From an uncultured delta proteobacterium (GTDB lineage: Bacteria; Desulfobacterota; Desulfomonilia; UBA1062): 64,000 nucleotides of DNA. Made by a program: the position numbers and the translations under genes. The stretch lies in NCBI GenBank assembly GCA_963785235.1, contig CAWAUM010000002.1, forward strand, positions 160,001-224,000, written 5' to 3'. This document shows positions 20,553 through 31,814 of the stretch, in pieces. The notes below the pieces were generated by a model. That model searched no databases. It saw only the letters and a program-made list of their open reading frames with translations, and had not been told where the DNA came from. Each line of letters begins with the position of its first letter. The stretch's first letter is position 1.

Positions 20553-21497
20553 CTAGGGCCTTTCATTAAAAAACCGCCAGGCTTCTTGAGCCATATTCAT
20601 GTCCCGGCTCACCCTGCCCACAACAAATACTGGCAGATACTGCTTTCCGGAAGGTACAGTATGACCGCCTCCATGTATCATATAGAGGCACACCCTCGAA
20701 CCGGTCCAGGAAAGGCGCTCTATATGTGTATCATCAGCCGGGTCAAGGTCCGGCATCTGTTCAATCTTCGGGTGTAGTTCCCGGTTTTCGCTCTTCAGCC
20801 AAGCGCGGGCGGATTCCATGGAAGACACTACCTCTCCTTTTGAGATCACATAAAAGAGCCTCACCATACCACCTTCAAAGGGATTGATGGGGTCATCTGT
20901 ACCGTTCACTATCATCACGGGCATGCCTGCTCGCGGGGCCGCGCACTTTGAATAATTGTTCCCGGGCATGTTCGCGCCGATTACGGCAATGCCTGCTATC
21001 TTGTCACGAATTTCAGTGGCGAGACGAAAGCACATGTGGCCTCCGTTTGATAGGCCCACTGCATAGACCTTTTTCGGGTCTGCATGCCACTTTGTGCTGC
21101 AGGCCTCGATGAGCTTGGTTATAAACCCCACATCATCAATGTTCTTGGTATGGGCATCATCCTTTGGTGCGGTTCGGCAGTCGTTCCAATACGTCTGATA
21201 CCCGTCCGGGTAGACAACAAGACACTTCTCCTTCTCGGCAACGCGATCGAACTGATCCCCGCATATCTCCCTCATCTTTTTGCCCGTTCCCATGGCGCCA
21301 TGCAGGACAATGATGATGGGCGGGGCTGAGAGTTCCCCTGATGGGATGTATGCAAGGTAAGTTCGATCCATCCCGCCCAGCGACAGGGTTTCCTCCACGA
21401 CCTTACCCGGCAATACCGACTCTGCTGCATGGAGATAGTGCCCAGGAAAAAATGCTGCTACTATGATCAAGTGGGTGAACAAATGATGGTATTGCAT
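20553..21497 (-). CDS. Secreted esterase, PHB-depolymerase/LpqC family
   Basis: Signal peptide, VLHG, VVYPDG, GLSNGG, GTDD, GGGH triad. Confidence 0.8.
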   Translation of the reverse strand: MQYHHLFTHLIIVAAFFPGHYLHAAESVLPGKVVEETLSLGGMDRTYLAYIPSGELSAPPIIIVLHGAMGTGKKMREICGDQFDRVAEKEKCLVVYPDGYQTYWNDCRTAPKDDAHTKNIDDVGFITKLIEACSTKWHADPKKVYAVGLSNGGHMCFRLATEIRDKIAGIAVIGANMPGNNYSKCAAPRAGMPVMIVNGTDDPINPFEGGMVRLFYVISKGEVVSSMESARAWLKSENRELHPKIEQMPDLDPADDTHIERLSWTGSRVCLYMIHGGGHTVPSGKQYLPVFVVGRVSRDMNMAQEAWRFFNERP

Positions 21498-22007: not shown

Positions 22008-23165
22008 TTGATGGCTAAAAGAGTTCTCAGGACAAACCTGTGTGACATGCTGGGTATCGAGTACCCCATTATTTGCGCAGGTATGGGTCCGGTTCTCATC
22101 GGTGAACAGGCGGGCTCGCCTGTGGATCTCGTGGTTGCCGTTTCTGAAGCTGGCGGTCTTGGTGTACTGGGCGGAAGCGGTTTTACCGTGGATGAGCTGA
22201 GGCAGGCCATCCGTGATATCAGGGCTCGCACAGACCGCCCTTTCGGGGTAGACCTCCTGCTGCCTAAGAATGTGGTCGAGGGCAAGGGTGTTGATTACGG
22301 CGATATCAAGGAAGTACCCCTGAGTGCAGCGTTAAAGACCCTGCCCAAGCCTTACCAGGACTGGATAAGTAAGGTAAGAACCGAACTGGGGTTACCCGGC
22401 GTGGAGGTTATGGTGAAGCTCAATACCACCACCATGCGGCCTCTCGATGCTGTGAAGGTGTGTATCGAAGAGAAGGTCCCCCTTTTCTGCGCAGGACTGG
22501 GAAATCCCGGCTTTATGGTGGAGGAGGCACATGCGAACGGAATCAAGGTACTCGCCATCACCGGCAATGTGAAGAATGCAGTGCGCATGGTGGAAGCCGG
22601 CATTGACCTGCTCGTGGCCCAGGGATTTGAAGGCGGAGGCCATACAGGCAGGGTAGGTACCATGGCGTTGCTGCCCGGGGCATTGGATGCGGCAGGTAAG
22701 GTACCGGTTCTTGCAGCTGGAGGTATCGGTGACGGCAGAGGGCTGGCCGCTGCCCTAGCCATGGGGTGTGCGGGTGTCTGGGTGGGTACCAGGTTTCTGG
22801 CAACGAATGAGGGTGGCGCCTTGGATGTGAACAAACGACGTATCCTTTCTTCCACTGAAGAGGACACCCGGGTGAGCTATGCAATAACGGGAAAGACATC
22901 ACGGACGAGCTACAGCCTGTTCCATGATTTGTGGAATTTATCCGGACTTGAGCCTCTCCCCTTTCCCATGCAGGTGCTGGTCTCTTCAGCCTTGTTCGCA
23001 GATTTGGTGGAGGCAGACAAAGACGAGTACATGGGCGGCTTTGCTGGTCAGGTCTCGGGCATCATCCATGATATCAAGCCTGCCAGGCAGGTGGTGGAAG
23101 AGATGGTTGAAGAGGCTGCCGAAATCCTTACCCGGGGGCTGCCGGAACGCGTGAAGGTACAGTAA
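22008..23165 (+). CDS. FabK/nitronate monooxygenase family flavoprotein
   Basis: YPIICAGM, AGGLG, EGGGHTG, AAGGIGDG, GTRF. Confidence 0.88.
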   Translation: MMAKRVLRTNLCDMLGIEYPIICAGMGPVLIGEQAGSPVDLVVAVSEAGGLGVLGGSGFTVDELRQAIRDIRARTDRPFGVDLLLPKNVVEGKGVDYGDIKEVPLSAALKTLPKPYQDWISKVRTELGLPGVEVMVKLNTTTMRPLDAVKVCIEEKVPLFCAGLGNPGFMVEEAHANGIKVLAITGNVKNAVRMVEAGIDLLVAQGFEGGGHTGRVGTMALLPGALDAAGKVPVLAAGGIGDGRGLAAALAMGCAGVWVGTRFLATNEGGALDVNKRRILSSTEEDTRVSYAITGKTSRTSYSLFHDLWNLSGLEPLPFPMQVLVSSALFADLVEADKDEYMGGFAGQVSGIIHDIKPARQVVEEMVEEAAEILTRGLPERVKVQ

Positions 23166-23227
23166 ATAGGTGAAGGGGTATATAGATATTAATAATGCCA
23201 GCAGAGCCTAAGGTGAGCTGAAACAAA

Positions 23228-23257
23228 AAGGCCCCGTCTTATAAAAAGACAGGGCCT
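23228..23257. terminator. Hairpin between convergent genes
   Basis: AAGGCCCCGTCTT...AAGACAGGGCCTT, preceded by an A-run (U-tail on the - strand). Confidence 0.65.
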
Positions 23258-23268
23258 TGTATTACTTA

Positions 23269-24558
23269 TTAGTCTTCATCGTCATAACCCGTACCAGGAG
23301 GGGCTTCTGATTTGATTGACCGGTTGATTCCCTTTGAAAGTATGGCTGCAATGGAGAAGAGTATTACCATTGCGCCGAAGAGGATCAGTATGATCGTGGT
23401 CAGCCATGACTGGGCTTCCTTTTCTACCTTACCGGAAGCGATCTTGGCCTGCTCGTTGAACTTTTCAACATCCACACCCATGCCAACCCATCCGAATCCG
23501 GCCGGCTTGGGGTAATCCTTTGCGTAGAAAGGTATGGGAGCATACGCCACTATCTTCGTACGGCCTTCGAATTTATAGGTCTTTATTCCCGATTTGCCCA
23601 ATGCGGCTTCTCTGGCGACCTCAGGCATGACCGGATCAATACCGCCAAGCTGATTGAGGTTCAACACCTCTTCACCCTTATTTTTCATTTCCTCGGCAAT
23701 GGCTGAGGTCAGCGGCGGAACAGGTGTACCATCCTTGTAGAGGCCTTCTATATGATAATCATTGGGGTGCGAGATAACAAACCCTCGGTTATCAACCATG
23801 TATGCATAGTTTCCCGTGGAGGCGTCCGCTTCTATGACGTAATTCGCCTCGAACGGCACGATGTTATCCGTGTATTTGGCAAGGGCCCTTGCATCAAGCG
23901 CAAGTTCTATGACCCCGGTAAAACCCTGCTTATCGAACAGCGGAGTTGCCATTCGAATAATCCCTTCGAATCTCTTCCCTTTTTCAAAATCAGCCTTGTT
24001 AACATACCACCCAGTGACAGGAGAGATATACATCTCACCCTTGTTGAGCTCTTTTGCCTTGAGGAAGTACTCCTCAGACTTATACGTTGTGTTGGCAGGA
24101 TTGCTCACATTTACTAATTCGTTTTTGGGGGCTATCTTGCCATCTTTAATTTTTATGAGCTCATTTCCATTGGTGTCTATGAGTGACATTTCCACATAGA
24201 GTGGCAGCTGTTCCTTTACGATGCCTGTATCTTTTTTAACCCAGAGTTCATACGTCTTGGTATCCAAGAACTGCTTATATGTCTCCTGGGTTGAAGGAAG
24301 GATTGTGGTGGTTAACACATCCCTCTGACGTTCACGCAAGAAGTTGGAGATATTCTCTGCCAAATCAGTTGCGCGCACACTGAGCTCCTGTTGCGATTTC
24401 GTATCAAGAGCATTCATCGTACCTGTTTTGGATAAGCCGCCAATATTGAAAATGCTGAAGGCTATGAGGGAAGCGATCAGTAATAAGGGGATCACGACAA
24501 GCAGGAAAAATAACCTTGCAACCGTTAATAAACGAGTTCCTTTAATCGATTCAGGCAT
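23269..24558 (-). CDS. Two-TM periplasmic Cache-domain protein without a cytoplasmic output domain
   Basis: TM1, YF...YISP, YAYMVDNRGFVISHP, VAYAPI, TM2, then an approximately 20-aa acidic tail. Confidence 0.8.
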   Translation of the reverse strand: MPESIKGTRLLTVARLFFLLVVIPLLLIASLIAFSIFNIGGLSKTGTMNALDTKSQQELSVRATDLAENISNFLRERQRDVLTTTILPSTQETYKQFLDTKTYELWVKKDTGIVKEQLPLYVEMSLIDTNGNELIKIKDGKIAPKNELVNVSNPANTTYKSEEYFLKAKELNKGEMYISPVTGWYVNKADFEKGKRFEGIIRMATPLFDKQGFTGVIELALDARALAKYTDNIVPFEANYVIEADASTGNYAYMVDNRGFVISHPNDYHIEGLYKDGTPVPPLTSAIAEEMKNKGEEVLNLNQLGGIDPVMPEVAREAALGKSGIKTYKFEGRTKIVAYAPIPFYAKDYPKPAGFGWVGMGVDVEKFNEQAKIASGKVEKEAQSWLTTIILILFGAMVILFSIAAILSKGINRSIKSEAPPGTGYDDED

Positions 24559-24611
24559 TTTTTCCCCCTTATTCTTTGAATCGTTCTGTTAAAAACCCTC
24601 TGTCCAAAAGC

Positions 24612-24989
24612 TTATCCAAACAGGAAAGTCTTGAATGGGTTGGCGAAGATGAGGATGAGCGTAATAACCAGCGCATAGATAGCGATGGATTCGGCCATGG
24701 CCATACCAACCATCATTGTCATCATGATCTTTCCCTGTGCCGCTGGGTTTCTGCCTACTGCCTCAGAGGCGCCTGCTGCTGCTGCGCCAATGCCTGCGCC
24801 TGCACCGATGCACCCAAGGCCGATAGCAAAGCCTGCGCCGAGCATTGCGCCGACCGAGAAGATCACCTTGATAAGCGGATCCTGAGCAGCCGGGATTGCA
24901 TCAGCTGCGAAGACTCCCTGTGACGCTAGAAGCGAAAGGGCCACTGTTGTTGCAATTGTGAAGAAGATTTTGGTCGCGTTACGAAACAT
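24612..24989 (-). CDS. atpE: F0 ATP synthase subunit c (stand-alone copy with N-terminal extension)
   Basis: GxGxGxG, RNP loop, ESIAIY ion-binding Glu, ANPF. Confidence 0.92.
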   Translation of the reverse strand: MFRNATKIFFTIATTVALSLLASQGVFAADAIPAAQDPLIKVIFSVGAMLGAGFAIGLGCIGAGAGIGAAAAGASEAVGRNPAAQGKIMMTMMVGMAMAESIAIYALVITLILIFANPFKTFLFG

Positions 24990-25063
24990 GTTTATTCTCC
25001 TTTCTAACTGATAATTTTTTCGTATTCATTTTGACTGAGTCCTCATTTCTCTCATTCAAGAAA

Positions 25064-25079
25064 AGCAATAGCTATGCCA
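25064..25079 (-). promoter_or_regulatory. sigma54 (-24/-12) promoter for atpE-Cache
   Basis: TGGCATAGCTATTGCT matches TGGCAC-N5-TTGCW, about 75 bp upstream of atpE. Confidence 0.8.
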
Positions 25080-25469
25080 CGTTGTGACAGTGTTAATATT
25101 TCTCCTGTACCAACTTGATATTAATATCTAATTTAGCTATGAATTCTGTGTATCACCCACTTTGCCTGAACAATACTATTAAACGTATCGTTCAATAGAG
25201 TCTCATCATGTTGAACAAAAAGTGTTATATGCCCCATGAACCATCAGTATACTCCCTGAAGGATATTCATCGAGAGCTCCCAAAAACATCCTTTTTGTAT
25301 CTAGTTTAAAGAACTTCTCATGGATGGATAAGGTTCGTGATGGAATGAAGTAATGATAAGGAGTTGCTATTGGTATTACAAGGGGGTGAGCTGCGAGGGA
25401 TTGTTTTGATTTGTAGCTGGGCACCAAACAATAGCTGGTATTTACATAGGACTAGATATAATGACTTGG

Positions 25470-25719
25470 TCAGTCCTACCGGCATAGCAGAAACAAGGAA
25501 GAAGCCGAAAATGAAACTGCAAATACCCACTATCCAGATGCTGGATGCATACTGGAGAAGCAAGGGCAGGGGGATAGACATACTCATAGCCAGTACCAGG
25601 AATACCTTTCTTCTGTGGTATTTATCCGAGAGGGCCGAGATTACTCCCGCCCCGAATATACATCCACCCACAAGGAGGCCACCCATAATGCCCGGGACAA
25701 GGGTTGAATCGATGCCCAA
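25470..25719 (-). pseudogene. Internal fragment of an MFS transporter
   Basis: Hydrophobic helices with motif-A-like ALSDKYHRRK; both ends missing. Confidence 0.6.
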
Positions 25720-25744
25720 TTATTTGTGGATGCATCCTATTGCA

Positions 25745-25786
25745 TGCACTTCATGCCCCGGTCGTGGGACCGGGGCATGAAGTGCA
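25745..25786. terminator. 19-bp perfect hairpin downstream of fadL
   Basis: TGCACTTCATGCCCCGGTC-GTGG-GACCGGGGCATGAAGTGCA. Confidence 0.65.
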
Positions 25787-25802
25787 CCCTTTTTAACCTG
25801 TA

Positions 25803-27122
25803 CTAAATCGAGTAATCGAACCCGACAGCGAAGATCCAGGTTGAATTCTTCATGTCCACTGTACCGATGGGGGTTACAATGCTCTCATCTTTCCACCATG
25901 TATAACTGAGCCCGCAATTCAGGTTAAGGCCGGGAAGGACCTTGTAACCGAATCCCGCTGCAAGGTTCACATCATCCGAATACTGAACTTCAACAGACCC
26001 GGGAGTCGCATTGTAGTATGCGTCAATATCGTCCCATCTAAAGAGGGTGTACAGCGTTCCTGCGCTGACTTCCAGTTCAGGTGAGACCTGATAGACCCCC
26101 GCAACCCCGATACTCCAGCAATCACCGGCTAGGTTGGAAATATCCTTTCCAGTTGATGCCTTTCCCCAATTGGCTGCGCTCTGGAACCAGTAATTGGCAT
26201 CCAGCTCACCCCTGAATTTCGGTGTGAACAGGTACGATGCACCCATGCCGATCATGCCGGGGAAATCCCTGCGATTCTTTTCTCCATCTGAGTATAACCC
26301 AACTGACTCGCTGATATTGTCTCCACCCCTGATATCTGTCTTGAGATCCAGTTTCACCGGGGATTCGTAATGCAGAGCGAGATTCAATTTGTCATCCGGC
26401 CTTACCTGAACACCCAGCACCCCGCCCCATCCGTTATCTTCCTGTTCCACATTGACCTTTAACGGGTAATCCGGTGTAGCATCCCCCCCAACGCCGCCTG
26501 TCATCGTCAGACCCCCTTTGATGGAATTAGACACGGAGATGTTACGGATACCGGCAGCAACTGAGATCTTGTCTGAGATCTTATAGGCACCCCCCAAACT
26601 TGTTGCGAGATAGACCGAAGTGCCCTTGAGGTGCTCATTTGTGATGCCGGTGTAGGCTCCATAAAAGGGACTAGCCGGGTCAGTTAATAATTGTGCACCA
26701 AGCCCTCGGGTAGTGATGGAACCATCCGGGTAGTCGATGGACCCCGCACTACCCGGCATGTACAAACCACCGAAGATGGACCACAGTCCTTTCTTGTAGG
26801 AGGCATAGAGGTTGGGAACGAACAAGTCCGGGCTGTCCTGTTCATAGCTCAGCCGGCCGGTGCCCAGAGGATCATTAAAGGAATGGCTGGGCTTCCGGAA
26901 CATCATCTGATTCGAGACATTGAGATGAAACCCGTCGGACAGACTGACCAGACCGGCCGGGTTGTACACCACAATATCTGCCGCATCGGTAGCGGCATTG
27001 CGGTTGGACATGCGCACCCATTCCGCACTCATGTTGGTCAGGTTGTCAATCTGGGCAAAGCCCTGCCCGGAGGATAAAAATAGACAAGTGATTATGCCCG
27101 AGGCGATCAGAAGGTGTTTCAT
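25803..27122 (-). CDS. OmpP1/FadL family outer membrane channel
   Basis: Signal peptide, YNPAGL motif, beta-strand pattern, C-terminal aromatic strand GFDYSI. Confidence 0.85.
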   Translation of the reverse strand: MKHLLIASGIITCLFLSSGQGFAQIDNLTNMSAEWVRMSNRNAATDAADIVVYNPAGLVSLSDGFHLNVSNQMMFRKPSHSFNDPLGTGRLSYEQDSPDLFVPNLYASYKKGLWSIFGGLYMPGSAGSIDYPDGSITTRGLGAQLLTDPASPFYGAYTGITNEHLKGTSVYLATSLGGAYKISDKISVAAGIRNISVSNSIKGGLTMTGGVGGDATPDYPLKVNVEQEDNGWGGVLGVQVRPDDKLNLALHYESPVKLDLKTDIRGGDNISESVGLYSDGEKNRRDFPGMIGMGASYLFTPKFRGELDANYWFQSAANWGKASTGKDISNLAGDCWSIGVAGVYQVSPELEVSAGTLYTLFRWDDIDAYYNATPGSVEVQYSDDVNLAAGFGYKVLPGLNLNCGLSYTWWKDESIVTPIGTVDMKNSTWIFAVGFDYSI

Positions 27123-27554
27123 AAAGGATCTCCTTTCAAAAGGATCTATTCTATGGTTACCCCAAATGACCTATCCTTTAAACACAGGCTTATTACCACT
27201 CACGGAACCCGGCAAGAAGGGGTTACCGTATACCATGATATACAATTGTATAATAATGAACAGGACTATTCCAGCCAAATACATGACCAATGTGTCCAAA
27301 AATGGGGGTGAACTATCATCAGATGAATATCAAAGAGCTCAGAAGGCAAGAAGATCGGAGCTCTTAGATATGACTGACAGGCTTCCAGCATAATATCCAT
27401 AGAATGGGATGGCAGGTTAAGCCGAAGCAAGTATGAACCTTCAGGCTGCATAAACAACTTTGAAGGCTGCTAATATTACAGACAGTTCGTGACTTTATTA
27501 AAGCCGTATACTATAAGATAAGGAAAAGCACGTACAACGTAAAAAGGTATAGAG

Positions 27555-27725
27555 ATGAGGGAAATTGCCGCCATTGCAGCCTATCTTGTGTCCTGGTTGT
27601 TCTGCGAACTGGTAATCGGGATTAAAAGCGGGTTTATAACACTCATGATCTCCCTGCTCTTTGCCTTTGCCATCTACGCGCTGATCGCATATGCTGAGCA
27701 CGAAGAAGGGGATAAGAACGCATAA
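27555..27725 (+). CDS. Small two-TM membrane protein (56 aa, not in the ORF track)
   Basis: MREIAAIAAYLVSWLFCELVIGIKSGFITLMISLLFAFAIYALIAYAEHEEGDKNA, preceded by AAGG. Confidence 0.55.
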   Translation: MREIAAIAAYLVSWLFCELVIGIKSGFITLMISLLFAFAIYALIAYAEHEEGDKNA

Positions 27726-27803
27726 CGACCCCCTCCCTTTTTTTATACACAGACTATCTTACTCATTGCATCTAAGATAAGGATAAGACAAAATCATCGA
27801 CGC

Positions 27804-30368
27804 ATGAAAAAGAAGATATCCAGCATATACCTGAGATACTCCATCTGGTTGACTGCATTAACCGTTATTGTCCTGATAGTCCTCCTTGCCCTGACCGTTT
27901 ACTATGTGCGCGAACGGGCCATAATAGAGCTTTTCAGCGACCAACAGGCATTTATTGCAGGCCATACGGCATCCCGTATAGAGGAGTCTATTGCCAAGGG
28001 TGAGAAGGGCGTGAGCATGCTCTTGAAGCTGTTATCCACTCAAGGAGCGGGCGAGTTGAGGAAACAAGAGGAGATAAAGACCCTTTATAATGAACTCAGG
28101 GAAAACGTGCTCACCATTTTGGAGATAGATAAGAATGATGTTGCTGTCTATGGATATCCGGAAGATATTTCATCAAGGATGTATGGGAAGAAAATAGAAG
28201 ACTTTGCCCTCTACCATGTACTGAAAAAGATGAATCAAAGATTTATCGGAGAAATCAGAGGCTTAAATATCATAGACAACAAAAACCAGTCATCTCAAGG
28301 TAAGAATATTGGAATTGGTCTGCCTGTTATAACCTCGGGCGGCACCTATGCCGGGGCGATATTGGCAATAATCTCTCCTGAGTTACTCATCAAGCGATTC
28401 ATATCCCTCAATCAAACCCGCACTATGAATATGTACTGGTTGGTTGATGAATCAGGTGCCATAATCTATCATCCCGACCAGGCCAGTATAGGAAAAAATA
28501 TTGCGGAATTGACGCCCCAAGGAAATGCGCCTTTTAAAATGTTTTCTTACACATCGAAACACTACAGCGAGATGACTCTTAACCAGAAAGACAAACAGGA
28601 AAAGTGCATTATTGCCTATTCCCCCATCCGTATAGGCATTGCAAAGTGGTGGATCATTCTCGTTACCCCCTATGAAGATGTCTTAAAACCTATTCGCAGT
28701 GCATCGTTAAACATTATTCTCGGTGCAATAGGCCTTATTACCGTTGTCATCATCACAGCCATATCCATTGCCCGTTCCGATGTAAAACGATTCCGGCTCA
28801 AAGAAGAGCTTAAACGGCTACAGGAGCGGGAGGTATGGCAGGGAAAGCTTTTGCGCGAGAAGATGACCATTGAAGGGATCGTTGAAGGATCCCCGGTCCC
28901 TATGTTTGTGCTGGATCAAGATCATAAGGTTATCTTGTGGAATCGCGCATGTACTGATCTTACCGGGTACAGCGCAGATGAGATGATCAACACGGATAAT
29001 TACTACAAGCCATTCTATGAAGACAAACGACCATTCCTCCTTGACTTCATCATCGATGGCAATGTGGAGGACTTTGAAGCATTTTATGGTGAAGGCAAGG
29101 TCTTGAAATCCGAATCCATCAAAGGGGCATATGAGGCAGTAAAATATTTTAAAAACTTAAGTGGTAAAGAACGACACCTGCATTTCCTTGCTGCTCCGAT
29201 TTTCGATGAAAAAGGCGAAATTGTTGCTGCCATAGAGACCTTTCTCGATGTATCAAAAGAAGTGGAGCTCACGAAGAACCTCCAGGAATACGCTGAAACC
29301 CTTCAAAACGAACTGGATGAGAACATCAGGCTTACGAAAGAGGTGGAAGAGCTCTATAGTTATCTTCAGAGCATATTGAACAGTCTGCCTGATAAGATTT
29401 ATGAGCTGAATAAAGACGGCATTATCAATTATGTCAGCAGGCAGATACGCAGAGGCACGTACGATCCAAAGGGAAAACCCTTCACGGAATATGTGGCCCC
29501 GGAGCACAGGGCTTATGTCATCTCCAAATGGGAGGATGCAAAAAGAGGGATTTTTAAACCCTATGAGCTTGAGATGCTCAGCAGAAAGGGCACAAGGAAA
29601 CATCTCCTGATGACACCAAGCCCTGTAAAGGGCACTGATAGATTCGTTCTGGTGGAGCGGGATATTACCGAACTGAAAGACCTTGAAAAAAAATATTATG
29701 AAAGTCAGAAACTCGCAGCTATTGGTCAATTATCAGCAGGGATTGCCCATGAAGTGAGAAATCCTCTTTCGTCGATAAAAATGAGCCTGCAGATTCTGGA
29801 AAAACGCATGAAGCCTGAAGGCAATGACCTTAAGCGATTCAAGATTGCCCAAAGAGAGGTCGAGCACCTCGAGAAGCTTGTCAGCGATGTACTCATTTAT
29901 GCAAAGCCCACAGCCCCCCGTAAAGATCCGTCTGATTTAAGGTCAATCATTGAGAGTGCCCTTGCCATGGTTGAAAAATCTCTTGAAGACAAGGCTATTG
30001 ACCTGCAGAAAATATATGCACCCGGCAATGATATTATCCCTGTGGATTCACAAATGATCAAACAAGCGCTTATCAATATTTTTCAGAATGCTATCGATGC
30101 AATGGAGCCGCAGGGAAGGCTCTCTATCGGTTTGCGCAAAGAAAATGAATCCCTCCTCATAGAGGTTGATGACAATGGTTGTGGGATAGATGAGGAAGAT
30201 ATCCCCTACCTGTTCAATCCTTTCTTTACCAAGAAGAATTATGGAACCGGCCTTGGTCTTACCCAGGTTAAGAAAATCATTGAACAGCACAATGGAGAAA
30301 TAGAGATAATAAGCAAAAAAGGGTTAGGCACACGATTTATCATTACCCTCCCAACGGGTGTTACATGA
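27804..30368 (+). CDS. Sensor histidine kinase (Cache-PAS-PAS-HisKA-HATPase)
   Basis: Two TMs, IIYHPD, AHEVRNPL, NAIDA, DNGCG, GTGLGL. Confidence 0.93.
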   Translation: MKKKISSIYLRYSIWLTALTVIVLIVLLALTVYYVRERAIIELFSDQQAFIAGHTASRIEESIAKGEKGVSMLLKLLSTQGAGELRKQEEIKTLYNELRENVLTILEIDKNDVAVYGYPEDISSRMYGKKIEDFALYHVLKKMNQRFIGEIRGLNIIDNKNQSSQGKNIGIGLPVITSGGTYAGAILAIISPELLIKRFISLNQTRTMNMYWLVDESGAIIYHPDQASIGKNIAELTPQGNAPFKMFSYTSKHYSEMTLNQKDKQEKCIIAYSPIRIGIAKWWIILVTPYEDVLKPIRSASLNIILGAIGLITVVIITAISIARSDVKRFRLKEELKRLQEREVWQGKLLREKMTIEGIVEGSPVPMFVLDQDHKVILWNRACTDLTGYSADEMINTDNYYKPFYEDKRPFLLDFIIDGNVEDFEAFYGEGKVLKSESIKGAYEAVKYFKNLSGKERHLHFLAAPIFDEKGEIVAAIETFLDVSKEVELTKNLQEYAETLQNELDENIRLTKEVEELYSYLQSILNSLPDKIYELNKDGIINYVSRQIRRGTYDPKGKPFTEYVAPEHRAYVISKWEDAKRGIFKPYELEMLSRKGTRKHLLMTPSPVKGTDRFVLVERDITELKDLEKKYYESQKLAAIGQLSAGIAHEVRNPLSSIKMSLQILEKRMKPEGNDLKRFKIAQREVEHLEKLVSDVLIYAKPTAPRKDPSDLRSIIESALAMVEKSLEDKAIDLQKIYAPGNDIIPVDSQMIKQALINIFQNAIDAMEPQGRLSIGLRKENESLLIEVDDNGCGIDEEDIPYLFNPFFTKKNYGTGLGLTQVKKIIEQHNGEIEIISKKGLGTRFIITLPTGVT

Positions 30369-30434: not shown

Positions 30435-31814
30435 ATGCCGAAGATACTTGTCATCGATGATGATAGCTCGATCCGCGAGACACTGGACCTTTATCTGACA
30501 GAAGAAGGGTACGATGTCTATACAGCACCCACAGGGACGGACGGCCTCAACACATTCACCCAACAATCGCCTGATGTAGTCATCCTGGATATCAGGCTTC
30601 CTGATGTAAACGGTTTTATGATCCTCGAAGATCTCAGAGAAGAGGATGAAAACGTAAAGGTCATCATGATTACTGCCCATCATGACATGGAATCAACCAT
30701 CAAAGCCATGAAGGAAGGTGCCTTTGACTACATCCACAAACCAGTGGATGTCAATGAACTGGATATCGCTATTAAAAAGGCCATCCATGCATTAGAGATG
30801 GAGAAAAAGATAAAGGGTCTTCTTGTTGAGTCCTCACGGGATTACAAGGTCGGCGACATCATTGGTGAAGGCCCCGGGATGAGGGAGATCTTCAAGACAA
30901 TCGGTGTGGTATCTCAAAGCAGAACCCCGGTGCTTATTCAAGGCGAAAGCGGAACAGGCAAAGAACTCATTGCCAAGGTTATTCATAATAACACCGCTGC
31001 GGATGAACCATATATCGGAATAAACTGCTCTGCAATTGTAGAGACCTTGCTTGAATCAGAGCTGTTCGGCCATGAGAAGGGGTCGTTTACCGGGGCCATC
31101 ACGCGTAAACCCGGCAAATTCGAGCTGGCCCGCTATGGCACGGTATTCCTTGATGAAATTAGCGAGATGTCTTTGAATCTTCAGGCAAAGCTCCTTCGGG
31201 TCCTTCAGGAGAGGGAATTCGAGCGTGTAGGCGGGAAAGACCGGATCAAGGTAAATGCCAGGATCATTGCAGCCACAAACAAAGACCTCCGGGCAATGGC
31301 AAAAGAAGGGCATTTCAGGGATGATCTGTATTACCGACTGAACATCGTTACCATATTTATTCCGCCGCTCAGGGAAAGAAGAGAAGACCTTCAACCGCTT
31401 ATCAATTATTTATTATCCAAGATTAATTTCGATCTCCATAAACATATCGCAGGGGTTTCCGATGATGTGCTCGAGATCTTCAGACAGTATAGCTGGCCCG
31501 GTAACATCCGGGAGCTTGAAAACCTCCTCGTTCGTGCGGCAGTAGTTGCCAAGGGGCAGGTCTTGATAAAGAGCGACTTTCCAGACCTGAACGAGACTGC
31601 CGGGTTCCAGATAACAAGGGAACCAGAGGTGGATTACAGCCATGATGCCTTGGGCAGAATCCTCACCCTCGATGAAGTCGAAGAGATGCATATAAGGAAA
31701 GTGATCAGAGAAACAAAAAAGAACAAAGGCGAGGTCTGTGATATCCTGGGGATCTCCAGGCCGACATTCGAGAGAAAACTTGAGAAATACAATATCCAAT
31801 TTGAACGTGACTGA
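30435..31814 (+). CDS. sigma54-dependent response regulator (NtrC/AtoC family)
   Basis: REC domain, GESGTGKE, GSFTGA, WPGNIREL, Fis-type HTH. Confidence 0.95.
   Translation: MPKILVIDDDSSIRETLDLYLTEEGYDVYTAPTGTDGLNTFTQQSPDVVILDIRLPDVNGFMILEDLREEDENVKVIMITAHHDMESTIKAMKEGAFDYIHKPVDVNELDIAIKKAIHALEMEKKIKGLLVESSRDYKVGDIIGEGPGMREIFKTIGVVSQSRTPVLIQGESGTGKELIAKVIHNNTAADEPYIGINCSAIVETLLESELFGHEKGSFTGAITRKPGKFELARYGTVFLDEISEMSLNLQAKLLRVLQEREFERVGGKDRIKVNARIIAATNKDLRAMAKEGHFRDDLYYRLNIVTIFIPPLRERREDLQPLINYLLSKINFDLHKHIAGVSDDVLEIFRQYSWPGNIRELENLLVRAAVVAKGQVLIKSDFPDLNETAGFQITREPEVDYSHDALGRILTLDEVEEMHIRKVIRETKKNKGEVCDILGISRPTFERKLEKYNIQFERD

Follow-up and report, generated by a model that had tools for sequence, protein, structure and literature searches.

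The size and composition of the c ring set the ion/ATP ratio of ATP synthase and are usually treated as fixed per species; its gene, atpE, normally adjoins atpB, and the R-N-P loop of the F-ATPase c protein contacts the gamma and epsilon subunits. Here we analyze a 64-kb window, i.e., the whole stretch of 64,000 nt at C2:160001-224000 (contig CAWAUM010000002.1) of a delta proteobacterium of the Desulfomonilia (GCA_963785235.1; 3.9 Mb, 13 contigs, 93% complete), which carries a gene for an F-type c-subunit paralogue ("B type") followed by a gene for a two-transmembrane (two-TM) dCache protein that lacks any output domain. Single features of this locus recall described systems. In Acetobacterium woodii the c genes are part of the atp operon, with a duplicated hairpin among them, and the Na+ F1Fo of this bacterium (PDB 4BEM) uses more than one F-type c isoform for one enzyme (several c genes, one mixed ring). 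A genome with an N-ATPase (TIGR03322) has a further F-like c gene, and AtpI/UncI and related small membrane proteins, encoded beside a c gene, are helpers of c-ring assembly. The DctB/DctD-dctA units combine a dCache kinase and a REC-AAA+-HTH activator with a divergent -24/-12 target and an upstream inverted repeat. In the present case, the c and Cache genes and a divergent set for a small two-TM protein, a sensor kinase and an NtrC-type activator form a cassette of five genes that is conserved in Desulfomonilia and Syntrophales, all carriers being metagenome-assembled genomes (MAGs) according to their record titles.

The c gene is located at 24612-24989 on the minus strand and encodes a 125 aa protein. 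It matches PF00137 over profile positions 1-60 of 60 (E-value = 4.1e-17; 62.6 bits with a cut-off of 24) and shows the two-helix hairpin of that family. Its N-terminus, with a basic start, a hydrophobic core and VFA/AD, looks like a cleavable signal peptide. An earlier note on this DNA, made from the sequence alone, had described a complete c gene with an R-N-P loop and ESIAIY, which agrees with the profile match and with the AESIAIY motif found here, and had seen no other atp gene in the 64 kb; indeed, tblastn with a, b, alpha, beta, gamma, epsilon, AtpI, AtpQ and AtpR queries gave no match in the window. The gene is thus not part of an operon with atpB, the atpI-atpB-atpE genes of this genome being located on another contig. 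Concerning profile families, the protein stays below all NCBIfam equivalog cut-offs (16 matches; best NF009998, 72 bits vs 116). It is also distinct from the N-ATPase c subunit, since it scores 67.4 bits with TIGR03322 (cut-off 130.85), lacks the helix-1 Glu and groups apart from the N type in the c tree; the N-ATPase operon itself is located on contig C7. The closest solved chains are A. woodii c1 (the best match, E-value = 7.8e-25), Spirulina c15, chloroplast c14 and the c11 of Fusobacterium and Ilyobacter, and the three printed alignments of solved chains have Gln where the window c has Ile.

Exactly 53 nt separate the c gene from the Cache gene (spacer 24559-24611, minus strand, with the ribosome-binding site GGGGG as read from the sequence). 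The Cache gene (23269-24558, minus strand) encodes 429 aa with a cytoplasmic tail ending in YDDED, and 3' of it an intrinsic terminator is found on the same strand (23228-23258; 13-bp stem with seven GC pairs, then TTTGTTT), where transcription of c and Cache as a single unit would end. Upstream of c, also on the minus strand, are the 5' untranslated region (5'UTR) motif AAATGAGGACTCAGTC (25033-25048), a sigma-54 -24/-12 promoter TGGCATAGCTATTGCT (25064-25079) and a predicted enhancer (upstream activating sequence, 25179-25217), which consists of the inverted repeat TGTTCAA-N15-TTGAACG (25189-25217, an exact match) and a third half-site GTTTAA. The divergent genes on the plus strand encode a 56-aa two-TM protein (27555-27725), directly 5' of a dCache-PAS-PAS-HisKA-HATPase sensor kinase (27804-30368, assigned by Pfam), and an NtrC-type response regulator (30435-31814) with REC, sigma-54 AAA+ and HTH_8 domains (Sigma54_activat, E-value = 4.4e-67). 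The earlier note had correctly placed the Cache protein 53 bp after the c gene, with two TM helices, no output domain and an end about 20 aa past TM2 (about 21 aa in our analysis), as well as the near-consensus -24/-12 site, the inverted repeat and the terminator, each of which lies where it was described. It had overlooked the neighboring two-component system, the small two-TM gene and a second c-Cache pair elsewhere in the genome.

The adjacency of c and Cache, which the earlier note left to be examined across relatives, is conserved. Among 41 related genomes, all 25 full-length Cache homologues with a returned locus are directly preceded by a c gene of the same strand, and the types match (B with B; D, the type of the second pair, with D). 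A second sample of 80 loci from GTDB species representatives includes six with less than 250 nt before the contig end; 73 of the other 74 have c upstream of Cache, and the remaining one is N-masked with the 3' end visible. The two samples overlap and the loci are related, hence they are not independent. The strict element TGGCAY-N5-YTGCW is also the only such match in the 64 kb, which is not significant alone (at least one match in 38 of 100 shuffles), and the promoter was called because it is conserved: of 67 related loci, 63 have it at a constant spacing from c on the upstream side, the four others including one with just 29 nt of upstream sequence. Twelve aligned Desulfomonilia upstream regions have diverged nearly throughout, apart from the blocks TTGTTCAA-N14/15-ATTGAACG-N5-GTTTAA, the -24/-12 element, the 5'UTR block and the ribosome-binding site; the inverted repeat is kept in 12/12 with diverged flanks. 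Judged by this alignment, both promoter and enhancer are phylogenetically footprinted. Where the upstream sequence extends for 3.8 kb or more (53 loci), the dCache-PAS-HisKA-HATPase kinase is divergent from c in 46, and where it extends for 5.3 kb or more (49 loci), the NtrC-type activator is present in 43. Of 49 kinase-bearing loci, 45 have a two-TM protein of 56-64 aa before the kinase, often overlapping its start. The 56-aa protein belongs to no Pfam family, having sub-threshold matches to unrelated DUFs (E-value 0.02 or worse). A label as "AtpZ-like" was dropped for this protein, as Pfam gave no AtpI/AtpZ profile match.

Sigma-54 promoters need an activator. The locus has the expected parts of a sigma-54/NtrC-type two-component regulon, namely a conserved -24/-12 element, upstream sites for an activator and the gene of a cognate activator, and rpoN is present in the genome; the c-Cache operon is very probably a sigma-54 target of the neighboring two-component system, a regulatory reading as secure as comparative sequence analysis allows. 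We infer activation by the neighboring regulator along the following route: the kinase, co-transcribed with the small two-TM protein, would phosphorylate the NtrC-type activator, which would bind the TGTTCAA-N15-TTGAACG/GTTTAA enhancer and open the promoter. The suggestion of the earlier note that this is an inducible second c subunit, dependent on an activator, gains from the conserved promoter and repeat, the adjoining kinase and activator, and rpoN. In contrast to the DctB/DctD-dctA units, the predicted target here is a probable rotor subunit with an output-less sensor-like protein, rather than a transporter or catabolic operon. An Rfam scan of 22900-27900 gave nothing above noise, and folding of the window 5'UTR gave no stable structure. 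Metatranscriptome contigs from four runs of four studies, 88-99% like the window and from libraries that may contain DNA, cover parts of both genes, and none spans the spacer with 31 nt on both sides. Full-text searches of the literature gave no description of the cassette.

The "orphan" c subunit of the earlier note is in fact one of four PF00137 genes in the genome, which include the second atpE that it had proposed to look for; the window gene is hence not the only one. The first is located in atpI-atpB-atpE and has Gln in helix 1 (GIGQG), the second belongs to the N-ATPase operon on contig C7 (N type), the third is the B-type gene of the window (GAGIG) and the fourth, on contig C1, has GSGMG and is referred to as D type. 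After 187 nt, the D-type gene is followed by another gene of the Cache kind: a second two-TM Cache protein is encoded, which is 34% identical to that of the window and has the same DDED end. Beyond the c genes, a single F1 cluster of the F type, a single F-type a subunit and a single N-type set are found in the genome. Unlike the c genes of A. woodii, the extra B- and D-type c genes are not part of the atp operon and encode single hairpins, both have a Cache gene as partner, and one is very probably under sigma-54/two-component control.

Regulation of the D pair appears to differ. It has a near-consensus sigma-70-type promoter, CTTGCAT-N17-TGTATAAAAT, with no sigma-54 site in 10/10 loci, and its neighbors in this genome are genes for a MshEN/T2SS-type ATPase and NfnAB-like genes, with no two-component system; expression of the D pair in this genome is apparently constitutive. 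Of 25 genomes of the Desulfomonilia family f1, the D pair was detected in 23 and the B pair in 17; the two genomes that lack the D pair are 71 and 76% complete. A palindrome in the D-pair 5'UTR, CATGATTCAGA-N7-TCTGAATTCATG (C1:729215-729295; L172:7215-7295), is located 3' of the sigma-70 promoter and kept in 10/10 loci. As RNA it forms a hairpin (-14.6 kcal/mol, z -2.4), and it could be an operator or a leader structure.

Comparison with Syntrophales places the two paralogues in an evolutionary context. In the Desulfomonilia families f1 and f2 a Gln-type c follows atpI-atpB in 28 of 30 loci, the other two being cut by contig ends. On the other hand, F-type atpB has no adjacent c gene in any of the five Syntrophales genomes checked, whose c genes comprise the B type of the cassette, an N- or V-type copy in 4/5, and one solo c, located 3-8 kb from atpB or, in a single-contig genome with just two c genes, 100 kb away. 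As the only c gene that is neither N/V-type nor in the cassette, the solo c must be the F1Fo rotor subunit of those genomes. In five Syntrophales loci (L080, L081, L090, L100, and L160) a solo D-like c gene is convergent to Cache, about 300 nt from its end, which results in a c-Cache-c layout; these are the only two c genes in one single-contig genome. The F-type ATPase of Syntrophus aciditrophicus has been described as H+-specific (PMC2881411), and the passages of that N-ATPase paper located by term search make no mention of extra c genes.

A FastTree phylogeny of c was calculated from 98 distinct sequences of 88 aa (97 of 138 after identical sequences and open reading frames above 250 aa were dropped, plus the genome's own N-type c) and rooted on the N type. 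It places the atpIBE Gln-type clade on one side and a joint clade of B and D types on the other (support 0.986). The joint clade splits into the Syntrophales solo c with the f1 D-pair c (0.77) and all B-type c (0.76). According to this tree, the sole candidate for the F1Fo rotor subunit in Syntrophales falls within the D lineage, and the B-type c is sister to that lineage and therefore most likely a true rotor subunit; judged by its phylogeny, the window c would be expected to assemble into a rotor ring. The Cache tree (46 sequences) was midpoint-rooted because the kinases form two basal groups. It unites the output-less forms in one clade (0.99), in which D (nine sequences, support 1.0) is sister to all B of f1 and Syntrophales, and thus mirrors the c tree. 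Given this congruence, c and Cache were duplicated as a unit before the split of the Desulfomonilia f1 and Syntrophales, the latter having retained the D-type c without its Cache protein.

Constraint on the c proteins was studied in 55 B-type and 13 D-type distinct C-terminal sequences, counted after identical sequences and one open reading frame above 300 aa had been dropped. Invariant in all of them are Glu100 (the ion-binding carboxylate of helix 2), Ser101, Tyr105, R80-N81-P82, Gly79, Lys87 and N117-P118, and the position of the canonical Gln is occupied by Ile in 55/55 B-type and by Met in 13/13 D-type sequences. The earlier note took the Ile as a sign of H+ coupling, which it may be; the other ligand positions of Na+ rings (Glu, Ser and Tyr) are common to all three F-type c genes of the genome. 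Two relatives with Cache proteins of 91 and 88% identity to that of the window were compared with it, and over the 97 codons of mature c they show 37 and 34 synonymous and no non-synonymous changes; for the Cache gene, the synonymous/non-synonymous counts are 118/38 and 101/51. The B-type and D-type paralogues are under strong purifying selection, and they look like working rotor subunits. Selection, phylogeny and the invariant F1-contact loop are best accounted for if the window c protein is an alternative subunit of the F1Fo rotor, a proposal on which we are evenly balanced. As such it would be a working, ion-binding, ring-forming F-type subunit that most likely joins the one F1Fo ATP synthase of the genome, where it would give an alternative or a mixed ring. 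A property of the ring would thereby change, such as its ion-site chemistry (Gln to Ile) or its size; a retuned rotor stoichiometry, as suggested in the earlier note, may be the result.

Several points weigh against an alternative rotor. With Desulfomonilia already having a c gene in atpI-atpB-atpE (28/30 loci), it would require three isoforms for one F1Fo in this genome, and by tblastn neither c-Cache pair is linked to an F1 or a-subunit gene. Both trees were built from short or few sequences, with internal supports of 0.76-0.77 for the B and D c clades. Additionally, the F-type atpA of this genome has three 1-nt insertions compared with a 96%-identical relative (C1:575900-577300; locus L213) and is intact (503 aa) in four relatives. 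These insertions may be assembly errors or a real break of the alpha subunit, and in the latter case would question a working F1Fo in this genome. Finally, a rotor isoform alone leaves unexplained the constant presence of a periplasmic ligand-binding domain of about 300 aa.

That domain belongs to the Cache protein, which matches dCache_1 with 54.2 bits (cut-off 45) and no further Pfam domain. In its AF2 model (pLDDT 79) two long TM helices flank a double-PDC fold, as expected for this family, and the top Foldseek matches of the model are the ligand-binding domains of Mlp24 (E-value = 2.5e-12), vpHK1S-Z8, PctA/B and Tlp3. The Pfam scan found no HAMP, HisKA/HATPase, MCP signal or GGDEF module. 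Homologues number at least 782 (E-value < 1e-5), and among the 120 listed the length is 373-458 aa. In a phylum sample of 401 genomes, the short form occurs in 19, matches are truncated in two, and in 24 the TM1-Cache-TM2 module (E-values 1e-92 to 1e-43) starts open frames of 827-1217 aa, of which those scanned are HAMP(-GAF-PAS)-HisKA-HATPase kinases. The possibility raised in the earlier note that relatives would reveal a truncated kinase is not borne out, as the orthologues, all of about 430 aa, are output-less and only distant relatives of about 36% identity are kinase sensor modules, which points to a kinase-sensor origin of the module. The neighbors of the long kinases are heterogeneous (TAXI-TRAP, MFS transporter, polyprenyl synthetase, T2SS ATPase) and give no clue to a ligand. 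The kinase with the closest long relative of the module (locus L115; G034:C17:1-12000) is encoded with an NtrC-type regulator, divergently from a TAXI-type binding protein and a fused DctQM TRAP permease. A single open reading frame joining c and Cache in one MAG (L017/L044) was rejected as a natural fusion and attributed to a deletion of about 60 nt, because the Cache 3' end on the same contig is frameshifted and the membrane topology would be impossible. Complex prediction for Cache with mature c gave a score of 0.02 (mark 0.32) and was not used either way.

A second explanation is that the c ring and Cache make up a separate membrane complex that does not involve F1Fo, as a ligand-controlled ion-conducting ring or an ion-gradient sensor with the Cache domain as its extracytoplasmic ligand-binding subunit. 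It is related to the alternative of a repurposed c ring with a ligand-binding partner that the earlier note had raised. The strict pairing of the two genes, their duplication as a unit, the lack of a, b or F1 genes near the pair and the conservation of the Cache TM helices and acidic tail between paralogues (both TM helices and R-S-I...(Y)DDED, at 34% overall identity) speak for such a complex. Nevertheless, an R-N-P loop invariant in all 68 distinct sequences is hard to explain without F1, the D-type lineage holds the only candidate F1Fo rotor subunit of Syntrophales, and the Cache TM helices have no membrane-embedded charged residue able to replace the stator arginine. We consider this explanation unlikely.

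Somewhat less probable still is that Cache serves as an accessory co-sensor feeding back on the neighboring kinase, the c gene being merely a co-regulated isoform. The homology of the module to HAMP-containing histidine-kinase sensor modules of other Desulfobacterota, with E-values of 1e-92 to 1e-60, fits this role, as does its location next to the kinase operon in most loci. However, the second pair has neither kinase nor regulator and a sigma-70-like promoter, the Cache protein and the kinase's own Cache domain have no significant sequence similarity (best E-value 0.035), and the Cache phylogeny follows that of c. The D pair keeps c and Cache together without a kinase nearby, which makes it most likely that the membrane partner of the Cache protein is its c isoform and not the kinase. 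That the pair is redundant or in decay and has lost any separate function, as could be read from one single-contig Syntrophales genome with both genes frameshifted and kinase and regulator intact, is hardly tenable in view of hundreds of intact orthologues, a mature c with changes only at synonymous sites, and a conserved promoter and enhancer; those frameshifts may be assembly errors and were not relied on, because the atpA of the window genome has similar 1-nt insertions.

If the alternative-rotor reading holds, the Cache protein would be an isoform-specific membrane partner in putative contact with c, and would serve either as a helper in the assembly or segregation of the new ring or as a ligand-dependent modulator. 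A helper would be unlike AtpI/UncI, to which it has no sequence relation (neither the Cache nor the 56-aa protein has an AtpI/AtpZ match in Pfam) and which it exceeds by a large periplasmic ligand-binding domain. More speculatively, and with low probability, Cache could be a dedicated extracytoplasmic ligand-sensing subunit of the c ring, through which a periplasmic small molecule acts on the ring, within F1Fo or stand-alone. We know of no described precedent in bacteria for ligand-gated post-translational control of a rotary ATPase component. The alpha2delta subunits of animal voltage-gated Ca2+ channels place an extracellular Cache domain on a membrane anchor beside an ion-translocating complex; the resemblance is a general one, as homology is limited to the Cache fold, and both the partner and the kingdom differ.

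Some neighbors of the locus are outside the conserved cassette. Between the c gene and the kinase operon, a FadL/TodX-like outer-membrane protein (25803-27122, minus strand; PF03349, E-value = 1.7e-17) is a lineage-specific insertion without a homologue in any of the 80 related loci, and has its own terminator, a perfect 19-bp hairpin (25745-25786). Beside it, a membrane-protein-like open reading frame of 133 aa (25318-25719) is common only to the closest relative. The genes downstream of the pair (20553-21497 and 22008-23165) encode an alpha/beta-hydrolase that has a signal peptide and, on the opposite strand, a protein of the nitronate-monooxygenase (NMO) family, neither of which is conserved beside the cassette.

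New in this work are the second c-Cache pair of Desulfomonilia, with its sigma-70-type promoter, and the orthology of its c with the Syntrophales solo c, together with the congruent Cache tree and the kinase-sensor ancestry of the Cache module. The constant Cache companion of a c paralogue, in both pairs, suggests that c rings have a partner not described so far. Judged by their record titles, the related loci include Syntrophus species, which are cultivable carriers. Syntrophales and Desulfomonilia live close to the thermodynamic limit; if the B-type c enters F1Fo, it would give these energy-limited bacteria a regulated change of the ion/ATP ratio or of the coupling ion.

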